64,000 bases of DNA from an uncultured Pseudomonadota bacterium (GCA_963795945.1 CAWCJN010000007.1:9193-73192), one strand, 5' to 3'. Shown: positions 7,933 to 31,991, counted from the first letter of the stretch. Notes: generated by a model from the letters alone, not told the origin. Made by a program: numbers and translations.

Positions 7933-8024
<92 letters not shown>

Positions 8025-18962: not shown

Positions 18963-21900
18963 TAATGGGCAACAGTTTGCTTTTCCTAGTACACTTCCAG
19001 TCAGTAGCGGACCGACTCTCCCGAATGGACAGCCGATGACCAAGGCTGAGACGCGCGCGGCGGTCGGATTGCTCTCACGCAGTATCGTGATCGAATCCGC
19101 GAGCGCCTTTGGCGACAAGACCTTCGATCCAACGCCGGGCAATTTCTTCGGCGGCCATACGGTGGCGCGACAAGGATTTCTCAAATTCCAGGTGCAAGGC
19201 GTAGAATTCGCGCGGCTCGGCGAGGGTGGGAAATCGGGCATTATCCAGTGCATTTTCATATGACGCGTAAAAACCCGCCGAGCACCTTTGTTAAGGACTC
19301 TTCAATCAACGAATCGATGACGCGCTGGATTGTTTTGCACGCAACCTCCGGCGTTACCTTGCAACGCAACGTTGGGTTTGAGTCGATCGGCCACGGTTAC
19401 TATCTGGAGGACGGCATGGAGACCGACAACAAGCTCTACGCCAACCTCGGAATTTTCGCGCGCGCCGCAATCAACAATGCGCAGAACCCGAGGCAAGTTC
19501 CGGGGATTCTGGCGGCGCCCGACTACCCCATTGTCCAGACTGATAAAGGACCGCTGCAAACTGGCCCCAATACTGACGTCGTGCCGTACCATTCCGATTG
19601 GAACCATCCCTCAGTCTTCTGGATCATGAACGCCTGGAACGACTTCGAAGTCAATATGGCGGCGGGTGCCGGAACCTGCGGAATTTGTTACTGGCTGCTT
19701 CCCGGAATTATCAGTGGCGGCTCGACCATGATGACGTGGGACTCGTACGCTTCCGAGCAGAAAGGTGCGGCGCGCTCGGGCACGACTCCACTGCAAGAAT
19801 TCACCGGCAACTACTGCAGCTCGGCGATGAATTCGTTCAATACGGTCGCGAATACTACCGCCTGTTTCGGTGTACAGATCGGCCCTAATCAGGCCAACCC
19901 AATTTTTCCGGTTGTCAATCCGGTGAAAAGTACTCTTGCGCCATCCTCTAACTCGACTACCCCGGATGAGAACGGTTTTGATGCGAAGAATTTCTATCCG
20001 CAAATCGGTGGCGGCGGGCGCTTCCCGACGCGCTGTCCGGCTAGCGGAGACTGCTCTAAACAGCCGATCTGCTCCACCGGTGACGAAACCAATTGTGCAA
20101 TTACCGCCATTGATCACTATACTTCGGCGTTTCATTGGACGGAGACCAATTTCTCCTCGATTTGGTTGCGCCCACAATGGTATCTCTACATCAACAGTGT
20201 GCTCAGCGACGTGCTCAACGGGGGGATCACTTTTATTACCGGCGGCGGCTATACTCAGTCTGACGCGATTCCGGACATTGGGCGTTGGCACGTAAAAATG
20301 TATTTATCGGCAATACTCAGACAATCGCGAATAACAAGTACGCGTCAAATGCGGGTCCTTTCAATCCGGCGAGCGGGATGCGCTGCGCTCAGGCAACCAA
20401 TGGGGCAAACCCCGGCAATTACTGTCTATCAGCTGACGACGGAATCAGTATCCCACTGAGCAATTTCGGCAATAATCAGAGACTATTTAATATCTATGAT
20501 GGCCCGGCCTACGAAGACGCCAATGCCTTCCTAAATATTACCAAAACCGATATCACCGACTGTCAACCTAATACCAATGCGCCAGCGAACACCTGCTTTC
20601 AAAGTAAGTGGGGCGCCGGCGGCATAATCGGAATGCCCTACGATTCGAATGAGAAGGCGTGTTATCTGCCGAATGCCGCGATCGCCTGGAAACAGCCCAA
20701 CGGCTTCTATTATCCACCAGCCTTCCATTCGCGAAGTTTATTTTTCGATAACGTCGATATTCGTCATTTTGTGATCGAGCCGCTGTTCAAGACCACCGGC
20801 CGCTTCCAAACTGACCCTGATCAGGTGAAGGTCCGCTACTGCACCTGGAATGACGGAATGTTTACCGGCTTCACTGATGTCGATCGGCAAACTGAATTGG
20901 ATGATGATGACGGTACACTCACCGGCCTACAGGGCACCATCTCGGTGAACGAGGATCCATTTTTTAATGCTCCAGTCGAAACGCCCGAATGCCTTTCTGA
21001 CGTGGGGGTGACTCCGGCACAGGCGACCAATCCGACAAATTATCCTGGAACCGCTAAGACCAGCCCATACGACTATGTCACAACGGTTATGTTTCCCGCC
21101 TGCGCCGCCGATGGCAAAGATTGTGATGGCGCGATCTGGAACAAAGACTGCACCAATCCAGATTGTTCAGGAGTCCCGCTCTATCGCCAAAACCTGACGG
21201 CTGCCGAAAATACGATGACCCCGAAACCGACGCCTTTTATTCGCTTGATGGGCCAGGCGAAATATCAACGCAGTACGCTGACCTCAAACAATAATATCTA
21301 CTATATCGATACCACTCCGAGCGCGACACTCCAGCATGCGAATCTGCGCAACGTTTTTCAACAAGGGAATACCTACTATGTATTCCTGCTATTCGCCAAA
21401 GAGACTACCAAGCAAACCTATCGGATGTTCGTGGGCAAAGATCAAAATTTCGACGTGACCAAAAATGTGTTCCTGACCCGCGTCACGCTCCCCAGCTCGT
21501 ATCACTTTACCGCCAATGGCGCGAATCCGTGGCCTGCCGCCGCTCAACCCGGCGCCCCGGGATGGACCCGCTCGTATGATCCGGCCACCGGCATCCTGTC
21601 AGTAACGATGGACATGCAGGCGATCCCGGATTTCGCCTCGCTCTACAGTCAGACCCAACAGGAGCATTGTCAGCCCACTCATTTTGCGCATGGGACGCTT
21701 CGAGCACGACCAATAAATGCCAGTGCGTGTCGCAGACCGGCGGCGGAGTTTTGCCCGGCTTCATGGGCAGTGAATGCACGGCGCAGGACAGCGCGGTTTG
21801 CAGCTGGGCGATCAAGGATGTGGACTGTCCGGCCGGCGGATGTTTTGGTTTCGGCGTGACGCTGTCGCCATTGTTTACGACCAGCGATACACCAGTGCCG

Positions 21901-22163
21901 CCGCCGCAGGCCGATTGCTATCCGCACAACGCGGACTGGAATCTCCCGTTTGATGGGATCACGAATACGACGGACGCGTGTTTTTATCAGAACCCGCCGA
22001 CAGGCAAGTTCTGCGGCTAGCTCGAACGCCGATCCCGATTATACTTCCTCACCAGTTAGCAAAACGAAGCTGGCCGGCGAGGAGCCTGCGTTGCGACGCC
22101 CTCGAGGTTGCCATATTGTCAAAGATGTAGATAATAGCGAATCTCGCGCATTCTCGATTTCTG

Positions 22164-22751
22164 ATGATTCTCACCACGCCCAATCTGCTGACGCTTGGTC
22201 GGATCGCGATAGTGCCGGCACTGGTCTATTTGCTTCAGTTCTCCGGTCCGATTCCGTCGGCAATCGCTGCGGGAATTTTCTTTTTAGCCACCATCACTGA
22301 TTTTCTCGATGGGTATATCGCGCGGAATTATGGGTCCGGAACGATTCTCGGCAAGTTCCTTGATCCTCTTGCCGATAAGTTAATCGTCATTACGGTCTTA
22401 ATAATGCTCGCCGGGATGGCGCGAGCGCCGCGCGTACCTTCGTGGCTGGTAGTCGTGCTGGTTTCGCGAGAGCTGATTATCACCGGCTTACGCGCGATTG
22501 CTGCTGCTGAAGGTTTTGTGCTCGCGGCGGAAGAATTGGGCAAGTACAAGATGACTTTGCAATGCATTGCGCTACAAGGTTTACTGGTGCATTACACATA
22601 TTTCCATGTCGATTTCTTTGCTGCAGGTATGTTCACCCTGTGGCTGGCGACTGCCTTGAGTATCTGGTCTGGAGTCGATTACGCGGTCAGGATGCGCGCC
22701 ATCTTTGGCGCGAAGCCGGTTGCGGTGAGATCGAAGCGCGCCCTTGCGTAA
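22164..22751 (+). CDS. pgsA: CDP-diacylglycerol--glycerol-3-phosphate 3-phosphatidyltransferase
   Basis: 195 aa with the CDP-alcohol phosphatidyltransferase motif DFLDGYIARN....GKFLDPLADK, and multiple TM helices. Confidence 0.9.
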   Translation: MILTTPNLLTLGRIAIVPALVYLLQFSGPIPSAIAAGIFFLATITDFLDGYIARNYGSGTILGKFLDPLADKLIVITVLIMLAGMARAPRVPSWLVVVLVSRELIITGLRAIAAAEGFVLAAEELGKYKMTLQCIALQGLLVHYTYFHVDFFAAGMFTLWLATALSIWSGVDYAVRMRAIFGAKPVAVRSKRALA

Positions 22752-22839
22752 AATTGCGTCCAGCGGAATCGGGTCTGCTCGGGATTTGACAGCATAACGT
22801 TGAGAAGTTACAAGTTTAGCCCCCATTCGCGGCGGCAGA

Positions 22840-22915
22840 GCGGGTGTAGCTCAGTTGGTAGAGCGCGTGCTTGCCAAGCACGAGGTCGTCGGTTCGAAAC
22901 CGATCACCCGCTCCA
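22840..22915 (+). tRNA. tRNA-Gly (anticodon GCC), CCA encoded
   Basis: GCGGGTGTAGCTCAGTTGGTAGAGCGCGTGCTTGCCAAGCACGAGGTCGTCGGTTCGAAACCGATCACCCGCTCCA. 76 nt, anticodon loop TTGCCAA. Confidence 0.92.
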
Positions 22916-22917
22916 AA
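22876..22917 (+). repeat. attL-type direct repeat (3' part of the intact tRNA-Gly)
   Basis: AAGCACGAGGTCGTCGGTTCGAAACCGATCACCCGCTCCAAA, identical to 27024-27065. Confidence 0.95.
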
Positions 22918-23597
22918 GATTCTCCAATCAATTCAGCCTCTTAGAGCCGGGTTGTTCCGAGCGAGCACTCGCGCTCAGCTTTCCATCACCTACGTATCAC
23001 CTAAATTGTGCGGAAAATCCAACTCCAACCGCTCTCCGAAGCGTCGCGCCAACGTTCAGGTGTACGTCATCTACGACCAGAACGAACGCTGCATCTGCTG
23101 TCCGAATCGATCTCACGTGCGAATCTGTCTCGCTCCACGAAAGAGGCCGCTTCTGACGCTCTGCGCGGTCATCCTCGCGCGAGGTCTTCGCAACCGCGCG
23201 AGCGAATCGCTGAAGCTCATCCGCGCGCCTTGAGCGCCTCGAGCCGCTCGGCAGAGGAAGCCGCTCGAAGCCACCTGTCCTGGGCTCGGTCAATTCCGTT
23301 CCAAGTGCGGTTCATTCCGTAAGGTAGGCGAAAAGGGAGTACAGCGGTGAGTCCCCGTGGACAGCCGAGCGAGCCCATACAGGGGTGCCCGAATTGGCGC
23401 TGGCGGATGCGCGCTTGTGGAAACAACAAGGCTAGGTTCGCGAACCGATGCCTTGCGTTCCCCGCAAACCTTTCAAAATTGGTGAAAAGGTCAGCGGGGA
23501 ACGTCATTTATTGAGAGAGGGAGGGAGGAGCAGTGCGTCCAGAGCGTGTCACGCGGGGCATGGCGCGCTCCAACGCGCGACCGACCGAACAACCGAT

Positions 23598-24738
23598 CTA
23601 ATGCTGCAGGTTAACTCGGAGATTTGCGATTGGATTGCGATTAATCCAAGAATGCGGCTCCCGAAAAAAGTTCCATGTATCGAGTCCAACAAAATCAGTG
23701 ATACCTTCCAAGTATTCACGTCGCATATGAGTGAACAATCGACCCATCATTTGTTCTCTTGTATTGCTCTCGTTCGAGAGAGCAGGGTCGACGACTACGA
23801 TCCTTCGCAACGAAGCGTTATCCTGCAGCCAGCAGATATTTAAAATGAAAATCAATCGGAGGAATAGAATATCCGATGACTATAATTCGCGTAGCGTCGC
23901 GAATTAGCCCTACCGCTTCGTCCCATACAGTGGACAGGCTCTTCGTGAAAGATTTCCGCCATGTTGGTGGAATTAGGAGAGGATCTGCATCTGTCTGCAA
24001 CACCTTCGAATACTCTCCGTAAATATTTATTCTCGAATTCGCCACCAACGACCAATTTACGGAGCCATGGAGTTTTAAAACCGGAATCGCGTCTTCGTCC
24101 TTTGAGCAGCCGGCCGAAGGGTGTAGCTCCGGGTCTAGCGTTTTGCCGTATGAGAACGGCATTCCTAGCCGAGACAAAGCATCCTCCGCAATTGTGTCGT
24201 AGTTGAAGCTGATGATCGCATCGTGCCTCGTGTTGGGCCGATCGCAGAAGAAGCTCGACATCCAGCCTAAGTAAACATCGTAAAGAGGTCGACTCAGTCT
24301 TCTCTTGTTACCTTGGATATAAGTTGCGAGCGCTTCATCGGTTGGTGGCTGTTGCGACGACCAACTAACCGAAGGGTACTGACTCGCTCCGTACTTAGCC
24401 ACATCCTCTCTGCAAGCCTTTGCGTAATCCAATGTCGCGGAGATCGCGAGCGCGACGTCCACGCCACCCGTATTAATACTTGCTGACGCAAGGCTGAATA
24501 GCTCTTCGATGTTCTCTACATTCAAATGCACCCTGTATGACGCAGAGGCCGCCCTCACACGAAAGCGCAACACCTTCTCTACAGCTTCAGCCTCGCGTTT
24601 ACGATTTTTCTCAATAAGCCAAGCAAGGCTATCCCGCATGACATTTATGAAAGAAGCTACAACCGGTAAACCGGCGTCTACTGAAAAGCCCGTTCCGAGG
24701 ATGTAGACATTGTTATCGGTGAAGACAAAATGAGACAT
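23598..24738 (-). pseudogene. SIR2-like (SIR2_2 / PF13289-type) protein, one frameshift near the C-terminal quarter
   Basis: ORF 23818..24738 carries YILGTGFSVDAGLP, IISFNYDTIAEDAL, VLKLHGSVNW and RIIVIGYS. The C-terminal part LQDNASLRRIVVVDP... continues in ORF 23598..23855. The frames meet at about 23820-23835. Confidence 0.7.
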
Positions 24739-24766
24739 TTCGTTGAGTCTCTAATTCGTGAGGTCT

Positions 24767-25171
24767 CTAAATGAACCTTCCGTTCACAGACCGACGAGCG
24801 CAGGCTGCACGAGCGCGACCGCCTGCTGCATAGCGTTCGTACTCCATCCGATAGGCTTCGGATTTATTTGACTCTGGCATGAACCGACCGTCGAAGTAGC
24901 GCCAAGCAGTTCGGACGCGAGCAAGTCCACCAGCTCGCCCGCGCGGACTGGGGCGGCGCATTGCTTCGGCGAACCGTTCGATCGCAGCTCCTATGGCAGG
25001 AGCGACGACTGCCGCAGCGGTGACATTCGCCGCAAGGCTCCGCACTTGACGCTCACCTTCGACGCGTGCGCGAAGCATCGCCTGTTCGGATTCGAGACGC
25101 TGAACGCGTGCGCTTATATCGCTGGTGTACGACTCTATTGCCGACTGGATGTGGCGGCGTGTTAGCAGCAT
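24767..25171 (-). CDS. Hypothetical 134-aa protein immediately upstream of the SIR2 gene
   Basis: Helical N-terminus (SARVQRLESEQAMLRARVEGERQ), an Ala-rich centre and an Arg-rich tail. A 28-nt gap separates it from the SIR2 start. No family recognised. Confidence 0.45.
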   Translation of the reverse strand: MLLTRRHIQSAIESYTSDISARVQRLESEQAMLRARVEGERQVRSLAANVTAAAVVAPAIGAAIERFAEAMRRPSPRGRAGGLARVRTAWRYFDGRFMPESNKSEAYRMEYERYAAGGRARAACARRSVNGRFI

Positions 25172-25416
25172 GTGAATGAATTATACGCTCGCGCCAAGCG
25201 TCCAAAAAGTAGAGCGATTCCCTGAGCTTTTTGTTGTGAACAGTTCGCTGGCGTCTTAGGGGACATTGGGCTGGCTCGCTGGCGCTCGCTGGATGAGAAC
25301 AAACGGGAAATAAAGGGCAAGAAAAGGGAATCGGCTGATCGAAAAAACGAGCGCCGCGCTGGCAAGTCGATTGACTTCAATCCAAGCATGGCGTTTTCTT
25401 GTTGGTAGGTATTACC

Positions 25417-25827
25417 ATGCTCAGTTCAAATCAAAATTCACGCATAGTCAAGTCGGCCTGTAGCCTCTTCATCGATCCATGCGCAGGAACTTACCTTCGT
25501 CCCCTTGCGGGAACCCATTTCGAGCTTGTTCGCAAACTTGAGGAGTTCAAACCGGAGTCCGAAGGCGGCAATCCGCGCATCAGTCTCGCCGAGGTCGCGC
25601 GTCGAATTGGACGCGAGCGAAAGACCCTGTATTGCTGGATTGACAAGGGCGGGCTCCGTCAGGAGCACGGCCTAAAGCGGATAAACGGGCGCTGGTCGGT
25701 CGACTGGCCGATCTTCCTTGGTGCATTCGACGAGGGAAGAGTCGGCCGATGTCGTGAAGGCGAATCGCGGCTGGCTCGCGCTCGCTCATATTCCCCACCG
25801 CGGGGAGTACTTCGACGAATACCTTGA
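25417..25827 (+). CDS. HTH (excisionase/AlpA-like) DNA-binding protein
   Basis: ISLAEVARRIGRERKTLYCWIDKGGL...RINGRWSV resembles Xis/AlpA-type HTH proteins. The start is uncertain, and the 3' end overlaps the integrase start in another frame. Confidence 0.4.
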   Translation: MLSSNQNSRIVKSACSLFIDPCAGTYLRPLAGTHFELVRKLEEFKPESEGGNPRISLAEVARRIGRERKTLYCWIDKGGLRQEHGLKRINGRWSVDWPIFLGAFDEGRVGRCREGESRLARARSYSPPRGVLRRIP

Positions 25828-26937
25828 GCTGACTGATACCCGCGACAATCGCCGCGAGGCCGCACGCATCAAGCGTGCACTGGAAGCTGCGACTCTGAAT
25901 GGAACCTTCGAAACGGAATTCCGGCGACGGTTCCCGAAGTCGAAGCGGCTCGTGCGTTTCGAAGCCGCAGCGTCCGATCCGACGCTGGGCGAATTCGCTC
26001 TGGCGTGGCTCGAGGAACGTCGCACCCAAATCACGCCAGCCAGCCAGAGCCACTATCGACTTCAACTCAAAAATCATCTGCTCGGATTCCCAATCGCGAG
26101 CAGGCATGTCGCGGAAATAACTGACGGTGACGTGACTCAATTGATCGCGGCTCTGCAGGAGCAGTTTGCTGACGGTGCTTGGTCCGGAACGCGAACGATC
26201 AACATGGTGATCGCACGCTTACGATCGATCTTCGCGACGGCCAAACGGCGGAAGCTCGTCGCCGCCGACCCGATGCAATACGTCCGCAACCTGCGTCAGC
26301 CGAAGCCGGACGCTGATCCGTTCGACCTCGGCGAGGCGCTTGCGTTGGTGCGCGCTTCCGACGATTGGGAACGCGCCTTTGTCAGCGTTCTGATCTTTAC
26401 AGGGATGCGTCCGAACGAGGCGCTCGCGCTCCGCTGGTCACAGGTCGACTGGGTGCACAAGCTCATCTGCGTGCGTCAGGCGTCGGAAAAGGAGGTCGGC
26501 TCAATCTGCCGAAAACTCCGAACTCAGAGCGCGACATCGAGATGCTCGAATTCGTGCGCGACGCTCTGCAGGAGCAGAGAGCTCGTTCGCAGCTCAAGGG
26601 CGAACTGGTCTTCTCTTCAGCGAACGCAACGCTGATCGATCTCAACAACTTTCGCGCGCGAAGCTGGGCGCGAATCGTGTGTCACGCGGGCGTGCGGACG
26701 CGGACCCTTTATCAGTATCGCCACACGTTCGCGCGTCTGCTGATTGAGCAGGGAGCGACGCCGCAGCACGTCGCATCGCAACTCGGCCATGCCAGCGTGC
26801 GCATGGTCTTCGACGTGTACGGGCGTTGGCTGAACCGTCCGACGAGCGCGGCGATGGCTGCACTCGATCGCGCAATCTCTGTCACCCATGTATCACCCAA
26901 ATTTGGCGGGGACAAGAAAGGAATTGAAGGGAAATAG
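25718..26937 (+). pseudogene. int: Tyrosine recombinase / phage-type integrase, one frameshift
   Basis: ORF 25718..26635 has an arm-binding N-terminus (VKANRGWLALAH..GEYFDEYLELTDTRDNRREA) and SAM-like plus catalytic regions (FTGMRPNEALALRW). ORF 26365..26937 supplies LPKTPNSERDIEML...YQYRHTFARLLIEQG...LGHASVRMVFDVYGRW. The frames meet at about 26470-26490. Confidence 0.8.
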
Positions 26938-27023
26938 GGGAATGGTACAAGATGGGAAACAAGCCATCACGCAATTCCGCTAATAGTGGCGCGGAATTTT
27001 CGAGAGGCGGGCGAAGAACTTGC

Positions 27024-27065
27024 AAGCACGAGGTCGTCGGTTCGAAACCGATCACCCGCTCCAAA
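27024..27065 (+). repeat. attR-type direct repeat (displaced tRNA-Gly 3' fragment)
   Basis: The same 42-mer. Similarity extends 5 nt further upstream (CTTGC), with a 1-nt gap relative to the tRNA. Confidence 0.95.
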
Positions 27066-27431
27066 AGCGATCCTCGATTTCGATTTCAGTCACCAAGATT
27101 TGAGCGGATTCGCCAATCTTTGATTGGTAGACTCGCGTTAGCCGCAACTCGGCAATCAAAGAAAAGCCAGGACAGGCAATACGAATCCACCGCGAGGGCA
27201 TCACAATGGATGCAGTTTCGCGCTTGAAGCCTGACGATGATCGGCTAGTTTTTCGATTCTCAAAAATGAACGGAATTATGATCGCGAAACGGATTGCGGC
27301 TGTCTTCGTACTCCAGTGCGTGTACACTGTTAAATGACTATTGAAGTAGCTACCTATTTGTACGCAATGTATAGCTTATAGCTATTTCATACGGTCAATT
27401 TCAGTTGATGCATGTCTAAGGGGGGCCTTGA

Positions 27432-28550
27432 ATGCGCATCATCTCGTTCCCGCGAAAGCATTTCGCATGGAATCTACTTTATCTGGTTAGCTTTGCTTCG
27501 ATTGTTTTTATATTACCATCGCAAACCAAGGCTCAATCACTTTTTCAGGCTATGCCACTGATAGACTTCACCGGTGGGGAGCTTTATCAGAACAAATTCA
27601 ACGGGATGCTGTATAACAACTCAAACACATTGGCCGGTACGCAAGATGGGGATGCGCGCGCCGCCGCAGCAGCAGTTGTACTGCTGGACGCACAAGGGAA
27701 CCCCTCATTGAGTGGTAAAATCGGAGTCGTCGCGATTGGGATGTCGAACTGGACCGAGGAAATCTGTGTTGGTCCTGACGCTAACATGGATCCCTCGATG
27801 GGTTGCGCGACTGGCACCTTCATGCAACGGGCTCAACTGGCTCAACAGGCTGGAATTATCAATCCTGCAATTGTTTTTGTTGACTGCGCCCAGGCGGGTC
27901 AGGATGCTGGGGATTGGGCCGTTACGGGTTCCCCAGCTTGGAGTAAATGCCTGAATGCTCGCCTGCCAGCGACCGGATTGACGGCCAAACAAATTAAGGT
28001 GGTGTTGTGGAAGGAAGGGGATATCCAACCGGCATCCAATAATTTGAGGACGCTTGCGGCGATGATCGGGAATATTTGTACGAAGGCCGACGCGAACACT
28101 ATCGATAGTTGCTTTGACGAGCAACACACGGGCAAGGCCGCTCGGCTGATGCGCAAGAAGTTTCCATCGGTTCAGCTGATGTTTTTGCATAGCCGGATTT
28201 ATGGAGGATATGCGAATCTCGTCGGCAGCACGGAAAATCCCGAACCTTACGCGTATGAGTATGGATTCGCCACCAAATGGCTGATTGAAGCGCAAAACAA
28301 TCAGCTAAACGGTGGTGGTATTAATTCCGTCGCGGGTAACTTGAGTCTAAGGGAGTCCCCAGTGTTGGTGTGGGGACCGTACCTTTGGGCCAGCGGGACG
28401 ACTCCGCGCTCCGATGGGTTGGTGTGGTTGCAAACCGATTTCGACGCCAGCGATGGGACTCATCCGACCGAGAGCGGATGGACCAAAGTGGCCGATCTGA
28501 TGATGAACTTCTATAGTAGTAGTCCTTACGCGACGCCTTGGTTCAACTAG
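27432..28550 (+). CDS. Secreted protein, possibly an SGNH/GDSL-type hydrolase
   Basis: Signal peptide (LLYLVSFASIVFILPSQTKAQS), a block-I-like VVAIGMSNW and a C-terminal DGTHPTESGW (a DxxH-like block V). The family call is tentative. Confidence 0.35.
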   Translation: MRIISFPRKHFAWNLLYLVSFASIVFILPSQTKAQSLFQAMPLIDFTGGELYQNKFNGMLYNNSNTLAGTQDGDARAAAAAVVLLDAQGNPSLSGKIGVVAIGMSNWTEEICVGPDANMDPSMGCATGTFMQRAQLAQQAGIINPAIVFVDCAQAGQDAGDWAVTGSPAWSKCLNARLPATGLTAKQIKVVLWKEGDIQPASNNLRTLAAMIGNICTKADANTIDSCFDEQHTGKAARLMRKKFPSVQLMFLHSRIYGGYANLVGSTENPEPYAYEYGFATKWLIEAQNNQLNGGGINSVAGNLSLRESPVLVWGPYLWASGTTPRSDGLVWLQTDFDASDGTHPTESGWTKVADLMMNFYSSSPYATPWFN

Positions 28551-28596
28551 ATGACGGGACAGCCCAGCTCCTCGATTGACTACATGCTCTGCTCGG

Positions 28597-29007
28597 TCAG
28601 TTGAAGTGTCGTTCGATATAAATCAACGCGCTTTCCAGATCGGGCAGGATTTTAGTGCAAAATTTAACCATCCACGGCGAGCAATCAGCATAGCTGAGCG
28701 GACTGAAGGCGATTACGAATTTGCCGAGATCATAGCTGGCGTAGAAAACTTCCATCGCAGTGCCGAGCGAAGCCTTGCAGTAGTTGACCAGTAGCAGATC
28801 GGCTTCACGCACGTCTTGCAAATCAAAATCCACAATCTCGTTGGCGGAATCGATCTCGCGATCGCGGAAATTACGCCGCAGAGGGTCGAGTAGGATAAAA
28901 CGTCCAGCAAGACGTTCCTTGGCGCGTGTGCGCCAATCTTTGGCCGCCGATAACTCCGCGTCCATAATCGGCCCACATAGGTAGATTTTACGTACGTCCG
29001 AACTCAT
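28597..29007 (-). CDS. Nucleoside 2-deoxyribosyltransferase-like protein
   Basis: 136 aa. KIYLCGPI at the N-terminus, ADLLLVNY...LGTAMEVFYA, and overall size match the PF05014 fold pattern. Confidence 0.5.
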   Translation of the reverse strand: MSSDVRKIYLCGPIMDAELSAAKDWRTRAKERLAGRFILLDPLRRNFRDREIDSANEIVDFDLQDVREADLLLVNYCKASLGTAMEVFYASYDLGKFVIAFSPLSYADCSPWMVKFCTKILPDLESALIYIERHFN

Positions 29008-29231
29008 CGAGCGAGCGTAGCATAACCGCCAGCGTCGAATCCCGCAGCTTGAATCGCTTGTTTTGCAGAATTGTGAGCCGATTACAGGGGTCGTGCGTCT
29101 TGACGTAGTGCGCGATTTTTGTAGCGCAAACCCGGCTTCAATCCGGAAAAATCAGTGATTTCAGGTTGATGGGTTTCGCTACGCATGGCAAGCAGTTAAA
29201 AATAGTTGAGCGCCAACCTTGATTAGCTTAG

Positions 29232-30023
29232 ATGGCAAGCAGCTTAAATGTGGGCTTTGACAGCCCGGAATCCGTGATTGAGACCGCACGGGGAAAGCCT
29301 TCGCTCCAAGGCGCAGGTCTGACCAAGCGTTATTCAGGCCGTGCGGTGGTCGATAATGTTGGCGTTCGTGTGGGACACGGCGAAGTCGTCGGCCTGCTCG
29401 GTCCGAACGGCGCTGGGAAAACAACTACCTTTTACATGCTGGTGGGCCTATTGAAGCCGGACGATGGGCGTATCACCCTCGGCAGCGACGATATTACCGG
29501 ATTGCCGCTCTATCAACGGGCACGGCGCGGCATCAGTTATCTGCCACAGGAACCATCCGTCTTTCGCAAATTGACGGTCGAGCAAAACCTGCTCGCAGTG
29601 CTTGAAACCCTTCCTCTGACGGCCGAGGAGCGCCAGGCGCGACTGCAATCATTACTGGATGAACTGGATATCGCGCGGATCGCTAAATCCAAGGCTGGCG
29701 TACTCTCAGGCGGCGAACGTCGAAAAGTCGAAATCACGCGCGCGCTGGTACTGGATCCACATTTCCTATGTCTTGATGAGCCATTTGCGGGAATTGACCC
29801 AATTACCGTGATCGAGATCCAGCGAATCATCACCTATCTCAAGAAGCGCGGGATCGGCATTTTGATGTCTGATCATAATGTGCAGGAGACCCTTTCGATC
29901 ATCGATCGCGCCTATGTCATCCACGCCGGCAAGATTCTGGTACAGGGCGGACCACGAGAGATCGTGGAAAACGAGCGCGTGCGCGAAGTATTTCTGGGCG
30001 AACGTTTTCGCCTGCACCAGTGA
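29232..30023 (+). CDS. lptB: LPS export ABC transporter ATP-binding protein LptB
   Basis: GLLGPNGAGKTTTFYMLVGLLKPDDGRI, GISYLPQEPSVFRKLTV, LSGGERRKVEITRAL, FLCLDEPFAGIDP. The N-terminus is about 20 aa longer than usual, so the true start may lie downstream. Confidence 0.85.
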   Translation: MASSLNVGFDSPESVIETARGKPSLQGAGLTKRYSGRAVVDNVGVRVGHGEVVGLLGPNGAGKTTTFYMLVGLLKPDDGRITLGSDDITGLPLYQRARRGISYLPQEPSVFRKLTVEQNLLAVLETLPLTAEERQARLQSLLDELDIARIAKSKAGVLSGGERRKVEITRALVLDPHFLCLDEPFAGIDPITVIEIQRIITYLKKRGIGILMSDHNVQETLSIIDRAYVIHAGKILVQGGPREIVENERVREVFLGERFRLHQ

Positions 30024-30056
30024 GATAATCGATGCGTATATACTTATATTGGCGAG

Positions 30057-31583
30057 TTAGAGGATAGGCTGCAGGAATCGTGCGAACCACTCCTGAGTTC
30101 GTTCGAATATCGGACGCTTGCGCCAATTGGGGCGACTGATCTCTTTCGAGTCCTTCAAATCGGTTTCGAACATCTGATTCATGCGTTGACCGAAGTCCGC
30201 GCTCAACATCACCGCGTTAATTTCGTTATCACGCATGATACTCCACCAGTCGAGGTTAGATGAACCGACGGTGGACCATACTCCGTCGATGGTCGCGGTC
30301 TTGGCGTGCAGCATTTCGCCCTGCCATTCAAAAATTTTCACGCCTGCTTTGAGCAATCCGGCATAATGCGCACGCGCAGCCGAAACGACCAATGCATGAT
30401 CGCTTTGTTTCGGCAGAAGCAACTCAACGTCTACACCACGATGAGCCGCAGCTTTGAGTGCGGACTGCATTTGCCAATCTGGAGCGAAATAGGCGTCGGT
30501 TATGTAAATATTTTTTGCGGCGCTGTTGATCGCTGAAATGAGCGTTATAACTGAAATGAGCGTTATATAGATGATGCTGACTTCTTGGGCTTGGCTGCCC
30601 AACACGCGCACGATCACATTTCCGGCACGCACCGGCGTCGGAAAATAGTCCCGCGGATTGAGAGGTTTGCCTTGCTGCGCTTGCCACGTGCCGATGAAGA
30701 GCTGCTGCAATTCGGCGACTGCCGGACCCTCGATCATGACGTCGGTATCGCGCCAGTAGTCAAGATTTGCCGAACTAGGAGCGGGCTCTCCAATCGAGCT
30801 CGCGCCTGAGTAAACCGCGGCGATATTGGCCCCACCAGTGAAGGCAATCCTGCCGTCTATCGTTAGAATTTTGCGATGATCGCGATGACTGAATCCGCCG
30901 TGAAATCTCCGCTCGAATGGATTAATCGGATTGAACTCGAGTACGCGGATACCAGTAGCTCGCATCTGATTAATGAAGCTGTCAGGCGTATGAAACGAGC
31001 CAATGCTGTCATAGATTATGTTCACTTGCACACCTTGGCGCTGCTTTGCGATCAAGGTGTTGGCGAATTTCTTTCCAACCGGATCGTCTGAAAATATAAA
31101 AGTCTCAAGACAAATATTATTTTTTGCCCCCTCAATTGCCGCGAACATTGCCTTATAAGTCTCGGAGCCATTCTTCAAAAGAGTGACTTTGTTGCCGAGC
31201 ACCAGCGGCCCGCCGCCGATGGTCTGTTCGACCGCCAGATGCTGTTCAAGAATAGTTGCGCTTCCGGTATGCGTCGCAAGCTGCTTAATGATCTCATAGC
31301 TTTGCGTGGTGGATAGCGGCCCGTGAACGCCGAGGAATTCCGGCGGATGACGGTACAACCAAGCAGTGCGCAGCTGGTCAGTTACATTGGGAATGCCGGC
31401 GCATCCTTGCACGACAGTCACAATCAATAGCCAACAGAGCACTGAAACGAACGCGGGCTGGAATACAGGGTGAAGACGAGATGCTTGGCGGAATCTGCAT
31501 ATCGTAGGCTTTAACCAGCTTACGGCATTTCGGAATGAGATATAGACGAAAAATTGGCGTCGCTTGACTGATGGCCGCAACAT
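30057..31583 (-). CDS. cls: Cardiolipin synthase / phospholipase D family protein (two HKD motifs)
   Basis: HRKILTIDGRIAFTGGANI and LHAKTATIDGVWSTVGSSNLD. A possible lipobox VVQGC. The start is set at ATG 31583, because the longer ORF (to 31757) would run through the arsR start. Confidence 0.8.
   Translation of the reverse strand: MLRPSVKRRQFFVYISFRNAVSWLKPTICRFRQASRLHPVFQPAFVSVLCWLLIVTVVQGCAGIPNVTDQLRTAWLYRHPPEFLGVHGPLSTTQSYEIIKQLATHTGSATILEQHLAVEQTIGGGPLVLGNKVTLLKNGSETYKAMFAAIEGAKNNICLETFIFSDDPVGKKFANTLIAKQRQGVQVNIIYDSIGSFHTPDSFINQMRATGIRVLEFNPINPFERRFHGGFSHRDHRKILTIDGRIAFTGGANIAAVYSGASSIGEPAPSSANLDYWRDTDVMIEGPAVAELQQLFIGTWQAQQGKPLNPRDYFPTPVRAGNVIVRVLGSQAQEVSIIYITLISVITLISAINSAAKNIYITDAYFAPDWQMQSALKAAAHRGVDVELLLPKQSDHALVVSAARAHYAGLLKAGVKIFEWQGEMLHAKTATIDGVWSTVGSSNLDWWSIMRDNEINAVMLSADFGQRMNQMFETDLKDSKEISRPNWRKRPIFERTQEWFARFLQPIL
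30533..30568 (-). repeat. In-frame 18-bp tandem duplication inside cls
   Basis: CTGAAATGAGCGTTATAA / CTGAAATGAGCGTTATAT (17/18). It encodes ITLISV-ITLISA. Confidence 0.9.
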
Positions 31584-31587
31584 CTCT

Positions 31588-31603
31588 ATATTTCTGGAAA
31601 TAT
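31588..31603. promoter_or_regulatory. Palindrome ATATTTC-TG-GAAATAT overlapping the arsR start codon (candidate ArsR operator)
   Basis: Perfect 7-2-7 inverted repeat at 31588-31603. The arsR ATG is at 31602. Confidence 0.4.
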
Positions 31604-31991
31604 GGAGAAAGAAGCAGCGATCATGGCTTTGGGAGCGCTGGCGCAAGAGACGCGTCTTGAAATCTTCCGCCTGCTGGTCGGGCAGGGACCAGAGGGTTTG
31701 CCAGCGGGCGCAATCGGGGGTCGCCTGAATCTTCCGTCGCCAACGCTCTCGTTTCATCTGAATCAGCTCAGGTTTGCAGGCTTGGTAACCTCTCGCCGCA
31801 AGAGTCGCTCGATCATTTATGCGGCAAATTTCACTGTAATGAGGGAGTTGCTCGCCTATCTGACCGACAACTGCTGCGGAGGACGACCTGAGCTTTGCTT
31901 TTCCCGTCCAGTTGCCTCGCCCGAATGCGGAGCCGGTTGCGAAATCCCATCAAACGTTGAGCGTAAATCCAAACGGAGGATGCAATCATGA
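31602..31991 (+). CDS. arsR: ArsR/SmtB-family transcriptional repressor
   Basis: ALAQETRLEIFRLL...LNLPSPTLSFHLNQLRFAGLV is a winged HTH. The C-terminal Cys cluster CCGGRPELC resembles C-terminal As(III)-site ArsR types. Confidence 0.85.
   Translation: MEKEAAIMALGALAQETRLEIFRLLVGQGPEGLPAGAIGGRLNLPSPTLSFHLNQLRFAGLVTSRRKSRSIIYAANFTVMRELLAYLTDNCCGGRPELCFSRPVASPECGAGCEIPSNVERKSKRRMQS

Follow-up and report, generated by a model that had tools for sequence, protein, structure and literature searches.

A 64,000-nucleotide stretch of DNA from an uncultured Pseudomonadota bacterium (GCA_963795945.1, CAWCJN010000007.1:9193-73192; the whole stretch is called the window here) contains a 4.2-kb tyrosine-recombinase integrative islet in a tRNA-Gly(GCC) gene. 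Very probably, this islet belongs to a family of tRNA-Gly islets with a variable cargo slot: the slot holds a decaying passenger gene of the SIR2 type, and the conserved 134-residue protein encoded just upstream, called p134 here, is not a SIR2-specific partner. A preliminary description of the same DNA had reported the minimal tRNA-Gly islet, the catalytic residues of the SIR2 protein and the frame breaks in two of the genes, all of which are borne out; it had also proposed that p134 and SIR2 form an undescribed two-gene module, and that part does not hold. Coordinates are positions of the window, and L-numbers (L003 and so on) are homologous loci from genome and metagenome collections.

The two genes are indeed co-oriented and 28 nt apart (open reading frames, ORFs, 25171..24767 and 24738..23818, minus strand), and no HerA, TIR or pAgo gene is present among the islet ORFs, as described. 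A lack of conserved linkage between p134 and SIR2 genes elsewhere had been named beforehand as one ground for rejecting the module, and no such linkage was found. Of the independent p134 loci, 34 extend at least 1.2 kb downstream, and not one of these has a SIR2 gene near p134, either by tblastn with the window protein or by hmmsearch with the family profile (E<=1). Conversely, p134, the helix-turn-helix (HTH) gene and the integrase of the islet type are absent from all six SIR2-homologue neighbourhoods surveyed. Unrelated genes follow p134 at operon-like spacing instead. Because the gene after p134 differs from locus to locus and the SIR2 contexts lack p134, SIR2 is best read as variable-slot cargo.

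The ORF that comes after p134 begins anywhere from a 4-nt overlap to 70 nt past the p134 stop codon and is unrelated among loci. SIR2 takes this place in the window, a cytochrome c in L047, a GT87 glycosyltransferase in L040, an FHA protein in L012, a 90-residue ORF without a Pfam match in L003 (where a DUF3800 gene on the opposite strand is found farther along the slot), and small membrane, secreted or lipoprotein-like proteins in L021, L041/L053 and L048; a HEPN_RiboL-PSP gene follows 243 nt downstream of p134 in L032. The slot measures 0.4-3.6 kb, with a single ORF in the GCC subgroup to which the window belongs and up to several genes elsewhere. That of L007 is 425 nt long and has no convincing ORF.

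p134 and the tRNA-Gly islet family

At least 222 homologues of p134 share 60-70% identity with it, and their alignment has two invariant motifs, PRGRAGG...WR..DG.F and ER.A.GGR. The AlphaFold2 (AF2) model (pLDDT 86) consists of a 70-residue N-terminal helix followed by two Arg-rich helix-hairpin repeats. The protein has no match in Pfam, PADLOC, PHROG or NCBIfam; its profile returned only coiled-coil noise from the PDB, and a Foldseek search with the confident model gave no fold match. An exhaustive profile search yielded 181 representatives, all short except two longer ones without a Pfam domain, and no informative fusions, and a scan of viral contigs met no relative. The gene has a G+C content of 61% and is intact in loci that lack the integrase, for example L017 and L021. 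Our best guess, held with low confidence, is that p134 serves the islet as a dimeric nucleic-acid-binding regulator or accessory factor and that its own promoter also drives the cargo.

Scanning genome and metagenome collections for p134 gave 57 loci, or 47 independent loci besides the window after de-duplication. All 15 genome loci are in metagenome-assembled genomes (MAGs) labelled Candidatus Binataceae or "delta proteobacterium". In eight loci (L003, L004, L007, L008, L012, L014, L017 and L021) the strand opposite p134 carries a tRNA-Gly gene with a CCC or GCC anticodon, 1-4 kb downstream of the p134 gene, which is the geometry of the window. A divergent HTH-integrase pair stands upstream of p134 in 11 of the 35 informative loci, and four loci (L012, L003, L032 and L005) are complete sister islets, flanked by direct repeats of 31-66 nt that derive from the tRNA. 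The shared geometry, the divergent integrase and HTH genes and the complete sister islets together argue that p134 belongs to the backbone of a tRNA-Gly islet family and is not a partner specific to SIR2. The orthologous pgsA-tRNA-Gly(GCC) site is occupied in L007, L012, L014, L048 and L066. The family seems to be undescribed and has so far been seen only in Binataceae-type MAGs.

Islet anatomy and cargo slot

The features of the islet are collected in Table 1. The intact tRNA-Gly(GCC) gene owes its 3' part to the attL core. The direct repeat is perfect and tRNA-derived, as described, and measures 43 nt, one base more than the 42 bp given earlier; it starts at the last base of the anticodon and ends 2 nt after the tRNA gene. 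Only two exact copies of a 32-nt core of this repeat are present in the window (100 shuffles gave an expectation of 0), and no further degenerate att copies were found there. The ORF list, the translations and Pfam agree with the earlier account that an integrase, an HTH gene, p134 and a SIR2_2 gene lie between the repeats.

Table 1. Positions of islet features in the window and of related elements in homologous loci
Feature	Position	Strand	Details
tRNA-Gly(GCC), intact, integration target	22840..22915	+	ARAGORN; Rfam RF00005, 71.5 bits
attL core, left copy of the 43-nt direct repeat	22875..22917	.	repeat search, 100% identity
Presumed arm-type repeat, attL arm, TCACCTACGTATCACCTAAATT	22986..23007	+	tandem GGTGA(T) units read on opposite strand
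Conserved non-coding segment, ~350 nt	23226..23594	-	GC-rich, hairpins; 72-75% identity to L007, L047 and L014
SIR2_2 cargo gene, probable pseudogene	23598..24738	-	306-residue frame 24738..23818, remainder in another frame
p134, 134 residues, first gene of cargo operon	24767..25171	-	28 nt upstream of SIR2
Divergent intergenic region, p134 / HTH-integrase	25172..25398	.	gene geometry; same layout in L003, L009, L012, L032 and L040
HTH_17 protein, excisionase-/AlpA-like	25399..25827	+	PF12728, E 3e-4, below Pfam cut-off
Tyrosine integrase	25718..26937	+	two frames, 25718..26635 and 26365..26937; Pfam on both pieces
Presumed arm-type repeat, attR arm, TCACCCATGTATCACCCAAATT	26882..26903	+	within integrase 3' end
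attR core, right repeat copy, pseudo-copy of tRNA 3' half	27023..27065	.	repeat search, 100% identity
Arm repeats of sister islets	L012:6167-6198/11381-11412; L003:6222-6247/11968-11993; L032:5147-5186/9031-9070
Copies of the non-coding segment elsewhere	L007:8836-9261; L047:807-1238; L014:8954-9267; L040:5028-5096

Each arm of the islet carries one copy of a 22-nt degenerate motif that occurs nowhere else in the window (0 expected). Homologous repeats, tandem GGGTGAT units with 11-nt spacing, are found in both arms of the sister islets L012, L003 and L032, at an equivalent position within the attR arm. Since such repeats lie in both arms and the integrase has an Arm-DNA-bind_2 domain, they are probably the arm-type sites that this integrase binds. 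Its other Pfam domains are SAM-like and the catalytic Phage_integrase domain, and the box motifs TGMRPNEAL and YRHTFA...LGHASVRMVFDVY in the translation leave the R, HxxR and Y readable. Compared with the intact orthologues of L040, L012 and L003 (395-410 residues), the reading frame is broken by 1 nt in an A-run (A4) at about 26487-26490. The true start is likely a GTG near 25752. The HTH_17 ORF matches PHROG 66 (E 1e-3), a family annotated as "excisionase and transcriptional regulator". Some 75-110 nt of this ORF lie over the start of the integrase gene. It extends about 25 residues past the point where its homologues in the sister islets stop (...CS*), and it may have lost a stop codon. From the gene geometry, the divergent intergenic region is presumed to hold promoters and an operator; a promoter and terminator scan gave counts not above those of shuffles, and an Rfam scan of 21000-29000 at E<=1 returned nothing besides the tRNA.

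The 680-bp stretch that separates SIR2 from the tRNA is not without features: it holds the attL arm repeat and a conserved segment. This segment forms the other slot border in the GCC subgroup (the window, L007, L047, L014 and L040, where its start was recovered by nhmmer): the stop codon of the repaired SIR2 frame abuts it, and the GT87 ORF of L040 ends 8 nt before it. It is judged non-coding because the indels that separate L007, L047 and L014 from the window (1, 2, 4 and 8 nt) are not triplets. Two hairpins are found in it, a GC one (GCCACG-CAGC-GTGGC) and another with two compensatory changes, as well as a polypyrimidine run; RNAalifold, run on only four copies, gives 6 compensatory pairs of 87, and no Rfam family matches at E<=1. 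The segment could be a non-coding RNA, an origin of transfer or replication, or a regulatory region.

In some sister islets, ORFs of 351-381 residues without a Pfam domain adjoin the tRNA-Gly gene: in L003 (10979-12034), L017 (10107-11252) and L012 (10239-11360), all on the minus strand. Those of L003 and L017 share 85% identity, and that of L012 is unrelated. A replication initiator was suspected here, with nothing found in support, and the idea that the window segment is a decayed gene was dropped after tblastn with these three ORFs showed no remnant in the window. A small ORF sits beside attL in other subgroups (L066:3166-3399, L032:8446-8694, L048:1155-1715 and L053:2000-2182, all minus strand), where the window has its non-coding segment. 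In L066 and L032 it is 77-82 residues long; it contains Cys and His and has the motif ...F.ERF.R.G.PT.FC..H..EF..L...Q.KDWG..RD.RDVRF.Y.S.RGF.

The general plan is that of tRNA-targeting tyrosine-integrase islands of the P4-int/AlpA type. These likewise integrate into the 3' half of a tRNA gene that is regenerated by the direct repeat; they have an arm-binding integrase, a small HTH_17 gene of the Xis/AlpA kind and arm repeats in both att arms, and they carry variable accessory or defence genes between conserved core genes. The islet of the window differs in being only 4.2 kb long, without replication, transfer or capsid genes, in having p134 and the non-coding segment in its core, in its single-ORF slot, and in belonging to a family seen only in Binataceae-type MAGs.

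The SIR2_2 gene and its probable decay

The 306-residue piece of the cargo protein matches PF13289 (SIR2_2) at 26.4 bits (gathering cut-off 24.5) and keeps the motifs GTGFS, NYD, LHGS and IGYS. G15-x-G17-F-S, N179-Y-D181 and H224-G-S are invariant in the family alignment and present in the window copy, in line with the SIR2_2 assignment and the catalytic Asn/Asp/His set described earlier. PADLOC adds generic SIR2 and Aga_SIR2 matches only at the level of the domain (E ~1e-10; 4.5e-11 for Aga_SIR2). More than 1,100 homologues were found, which carry precomputed PF13289 annotations; the best non-self identity is 45-47%. Their family-wide motifs are GxGFS, NYD, KLHGSxNW, PPTWRK and G(Y/F)SxPxxDxHFKYLLAAGLQ, of which the window copy keeps the invariant NYD and KLHGSxNW. 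A repaired model of 382 residues aligns over up to 98% of homologues that are 364-500 residues long, and the family appears to consist of standalone proteins, typically of 380-460 residues. Only distant relatives (22-31% identity) were found among viral contigs, and no named standalone short SIR2 system came up in the literature searched, which does not disprove that one exists. The SIR2 gene, at 48.6% G+C, falls below the 59-61% of the backbone (p134, integrase and attL-side segment), and we therefore take SIR2 to be a separately acquired single-gene passenger.

Among proteins of solved structure, the closest are the SIR2 subunits of SIR2-HerA (Nezha; PDB 8sub, 8j4u, 8w9l and 8yhx). They are of similar size (about 380-430 residues), share NYD and LHGS, and are the best matches, nearly full length, both of the sequence profile (E 2e-11) and of Foldseek with the AF2 model of the repaired protein (pLDDT 85, pTM 0.88; E 6e-8 over ~400 columns). 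The likeness has its limits, with 13-16% identity and a TM of ~0.5, and there is no HerA in the islet or in the six homologue neighbourhoods. ThsA is a weaker fold match (E 1e-3), and canonical sirtuins score far lower. ThsA of Thoeris, DSR1/DSR2, the SIR2-APAZ protein of SPARSA and KomC also have a SIR2 or SIR2_2 catalytic domain, as the window protein does, but differ in other respects. The repaired window protein has the SIR2 domain only, with no SLOG domain as in Thoeris and no TIR gene in the islet. DSR1/DSR2 are ~1000 residues long with a C-terminal sensor, far above the 364-500 residues seen here. There is no APAZ domain, and no pAgo ORF in the islet or the homologue contexts, to recall SPARSA. 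Kongming consists of KomA (an adenosine deaminase), KomB (HAM1-like) and KomC (bioRxiv 10.1101/2024.12.20.629578), and neither KomA nor KomB appears in the islet or in the Pfam lists of homologue neighbours. By analogy, the chemistry of the protein is most likely NAD+ hydrolysis leading to growth arrest of the abortive-infection type. Sir2-HerA is one example of this chemistry and KomC (bioRxiv 10.1101/2024.12.20.629578) another.

The SIR2 frame, like that of the integrase, carries one break, in agreement with the preliminary description. It reads for 306 residues to a stop at 23818-23820, and the remaining ~78 residues lie in another frame that runs to 23598; in every homologue locus the two pieces are contiguous and in frame. 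The break (...KYLLAAG|LQDNASL...) falls inside the near-invariant block LLAAGLQxNxSL. Depending on the frame, the same bases, GCTGCAGGATAAC, encode either AAG or LQD, from which we infer that the ancestral sequence must have been the 18-nt GCTGCAGGNCTGCAGGAT. An 8-nt slippage deletion between CTGCAGG repeats, at about 23822-23829, would account for the present sequence, as opposed to a homopolymer error. The identical break is found in a separate Logan k-mer assembly, L016. The SIR2_2 gene of the islet thus has no intact full-length reading frame. According to the alignment and the AF2 model, the truncation removes one or more core strands as well as the invariant residues G306, N310, S312 and L313; because these are lost with the C-terminal ~78 residues, this copy is probably an inactive pseudogene. 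The SIR2 deletion and the integrase frame break together suggest that the islet is probably a decaying, recently integrated passenger.

The six independent SIR2 contexts show no HerA/DUF87, TIR, pAgo, KomA/KomB or shared recurrent partner in their Pfam lists. Nearby lie PIN/PhdYeFM pairs, a DUF6883/DUF4926 pair, DUF4062, transposases, and an N6_N4 methylase with a ResIII helicase. One homologue (L094:4397-7156) lies with the DUF6883/DUF4926 pair inside a xanthine/CO dehydrogenase-like operon, flanked by the genes for its MoCoBD and FAD-binding subunits, an arrangement that suggests a SIR2 gene moving as a tiny independent unit. Another, of 458 residues, stands in a Binataceae MAG (L096/L097:5001-11377) immediately before genes for an N6_N4 methyltransferase of 924-950 residues and a ResIII helicase of more than 1000 residues; this could be a composite defence locus.

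Alternative explanations and significance

On the reading that we propose, islets of this family insert by site-specific recombination, through the tyrosine recombinase, into the 3' half of tRNA-Gly genes with a GCC or CCC anticodon. The backbone comprises the integrase, the HTH_17 (Xis/AlpA-like) gene, the divergent p134 and the GGGTGAT arm repeats, together with the ~350-nt segment in the GCC subgroup. The variable slot begins directly after the p134 stop codon, is filled in the window by one standalone SIR2_2 gene and is transcribed, presumably, from the p134 promoter. By homology, the SIR2 protein would most likely act as an NAD+-consuming effector of the abortive-infection type; the window copy lost its C-terminal ~78 residues through slippage.

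Several observations weigh against this account. The NADase or anti-phage role is assigned across the SIR2 family by likeness, and the neighbour survey is small, with six contexts out of more than 1,100 homologues. With the integrase and HTH genes kept in only 11 of 35 p134 loci, many p134 copies would lie in immobile remnants, and the role of p134 may be unrelated to island biology. Neither an empty attB nor an excised circle was met in scans aimed at p134, so that mobility is inferred from anatomy alone. L016 may derive from reads of the same sample, in which case it confirms the SIR2 frameshift only partially, and the integrase break in the A-run may be genuine or may have arisen in sequencing. 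One could go further and regard both frame breaks as assembly artefacts in a fully functional islet, as the single base in the A4 run and the long-read origin of related MAGs would allow, but the 8-nt loss between two CTGCAGG repeats involves no homopolymer and recurs in L016, and this explanation is improbable.

How p134 relates to its cargo can be seen in other ways. That it is the sensor or regulator of a SIR2 NADase in a dedicated two-gene defence is hardly credible. The orientation and spacing of the two genes would fit such a system, as would the lack of matches to p134 in function databases and fold searches, and characterised SIR2 effectors mostly depend on a partner (KomC, for example, requires KomB; bioRxiv 10.1101/2024.12.20.629578). 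However, the absent co-occurrence already largely refutes the pairing. p134 is spaced just as tightly to genes for cytochrome c, GT87, FHA and small membrane or secreted proteins, the G+C contents of the two genes do not match (61% and 48.6%), and the closest SIR2 relative is 45-47% identical while relatives of p134 reach 60-70%. p134 might instead be a conserved regulator, adaptor or sensor that controls whichever cargo lies downstream. Cargo does always follow it in the same orientation at very short gaps, part of that cargo is defence-like (SIR2, HEPN_RiboL-PSP), and p134 stays intact even where the integrase is lost (L017, L021). Such a generic platform is nonetheless improbable, because cytochrome c, GT87 and secreted or lipoprotein-like proteins are not effector-like, and in the AF2 model p134 has only a coiled coil of simple form and basic repeats, without a fold match. 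Also quite unlikely is a dedicated docking platform in which the conserved, promoter-proximal p134 and a conserved, structured ~350-nt element bound a slot that repeatedly captures ORFs, and in which one or both of them take part actively in cargo expression, capture or mobilisation; if true, a HEPN RNase and a previously uncharacterised standalone SIR2 NADase would be among the immune effectors captured. Somewhat more weight belongs to the view that the SIR2 protein is no immune NADase at all but a deacylase, an ADP-ribosyltransferase or a toxin-like selfish gene riding on mobile DNA. The protein has neither sensor domain nor partner, the family function is assigned by likeness, and one homologue sits in a metabolic operon beside the DUF6883/DUF4926 pair. 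This too is unlikely, since the match is of the PF13289 type and not to a canonical sirtuin, the nearest structures are defence SIR2s (SIR2-HerA, then ThsA), and homologues occur among PIN/PhdYeFM pairs, DUF4062, and methylase and ResIII genes. Our preferred reading remains the islet family with a variable slot and SIR2 as one of its passengers.

Beyond the islet, the right flank (27066-31757) is low in G+C (0.46-0.47 at 27000-27750). It encodes a secreted 372-residue protein without a Pfam match, a nucleoside 2-deoxyribosyltransferase-like protein of 136 residues (28597-29007) and a PLD-like protein of 566 residues (30057-31757). None of these genes is syntenic with other islet loci, and this flank may be older horizontally acquired DNA. 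When the empty site was sought, the proteins of this flank proved to have no counterpart in any fetched locus. A second tRNA gene of the window, tRNA-Ser(GCT), lies at 7933-8024 on the minus strand.

These findings remove a false lead, as a two-gene SIR2 system is not supported here. They document very small tRNA-Gly islets of the poorly studied Binataceae, whose slot samples defence-like genes (SIR2, HEPN) as well as ordinary accessory genes. The islet is an element of an ordinary kind, from an apparently undescribed family, and it carries a pseudogenised member of a standalone SIR2 family. That family is a large one of ~400-residue SIR2_2 proteins, closest in structure to the SIR2 of SIR2-HerA, without HerA and in defence-island-like surroundings, and it may reasonably be considered as a candidate single-gene NADase defence.

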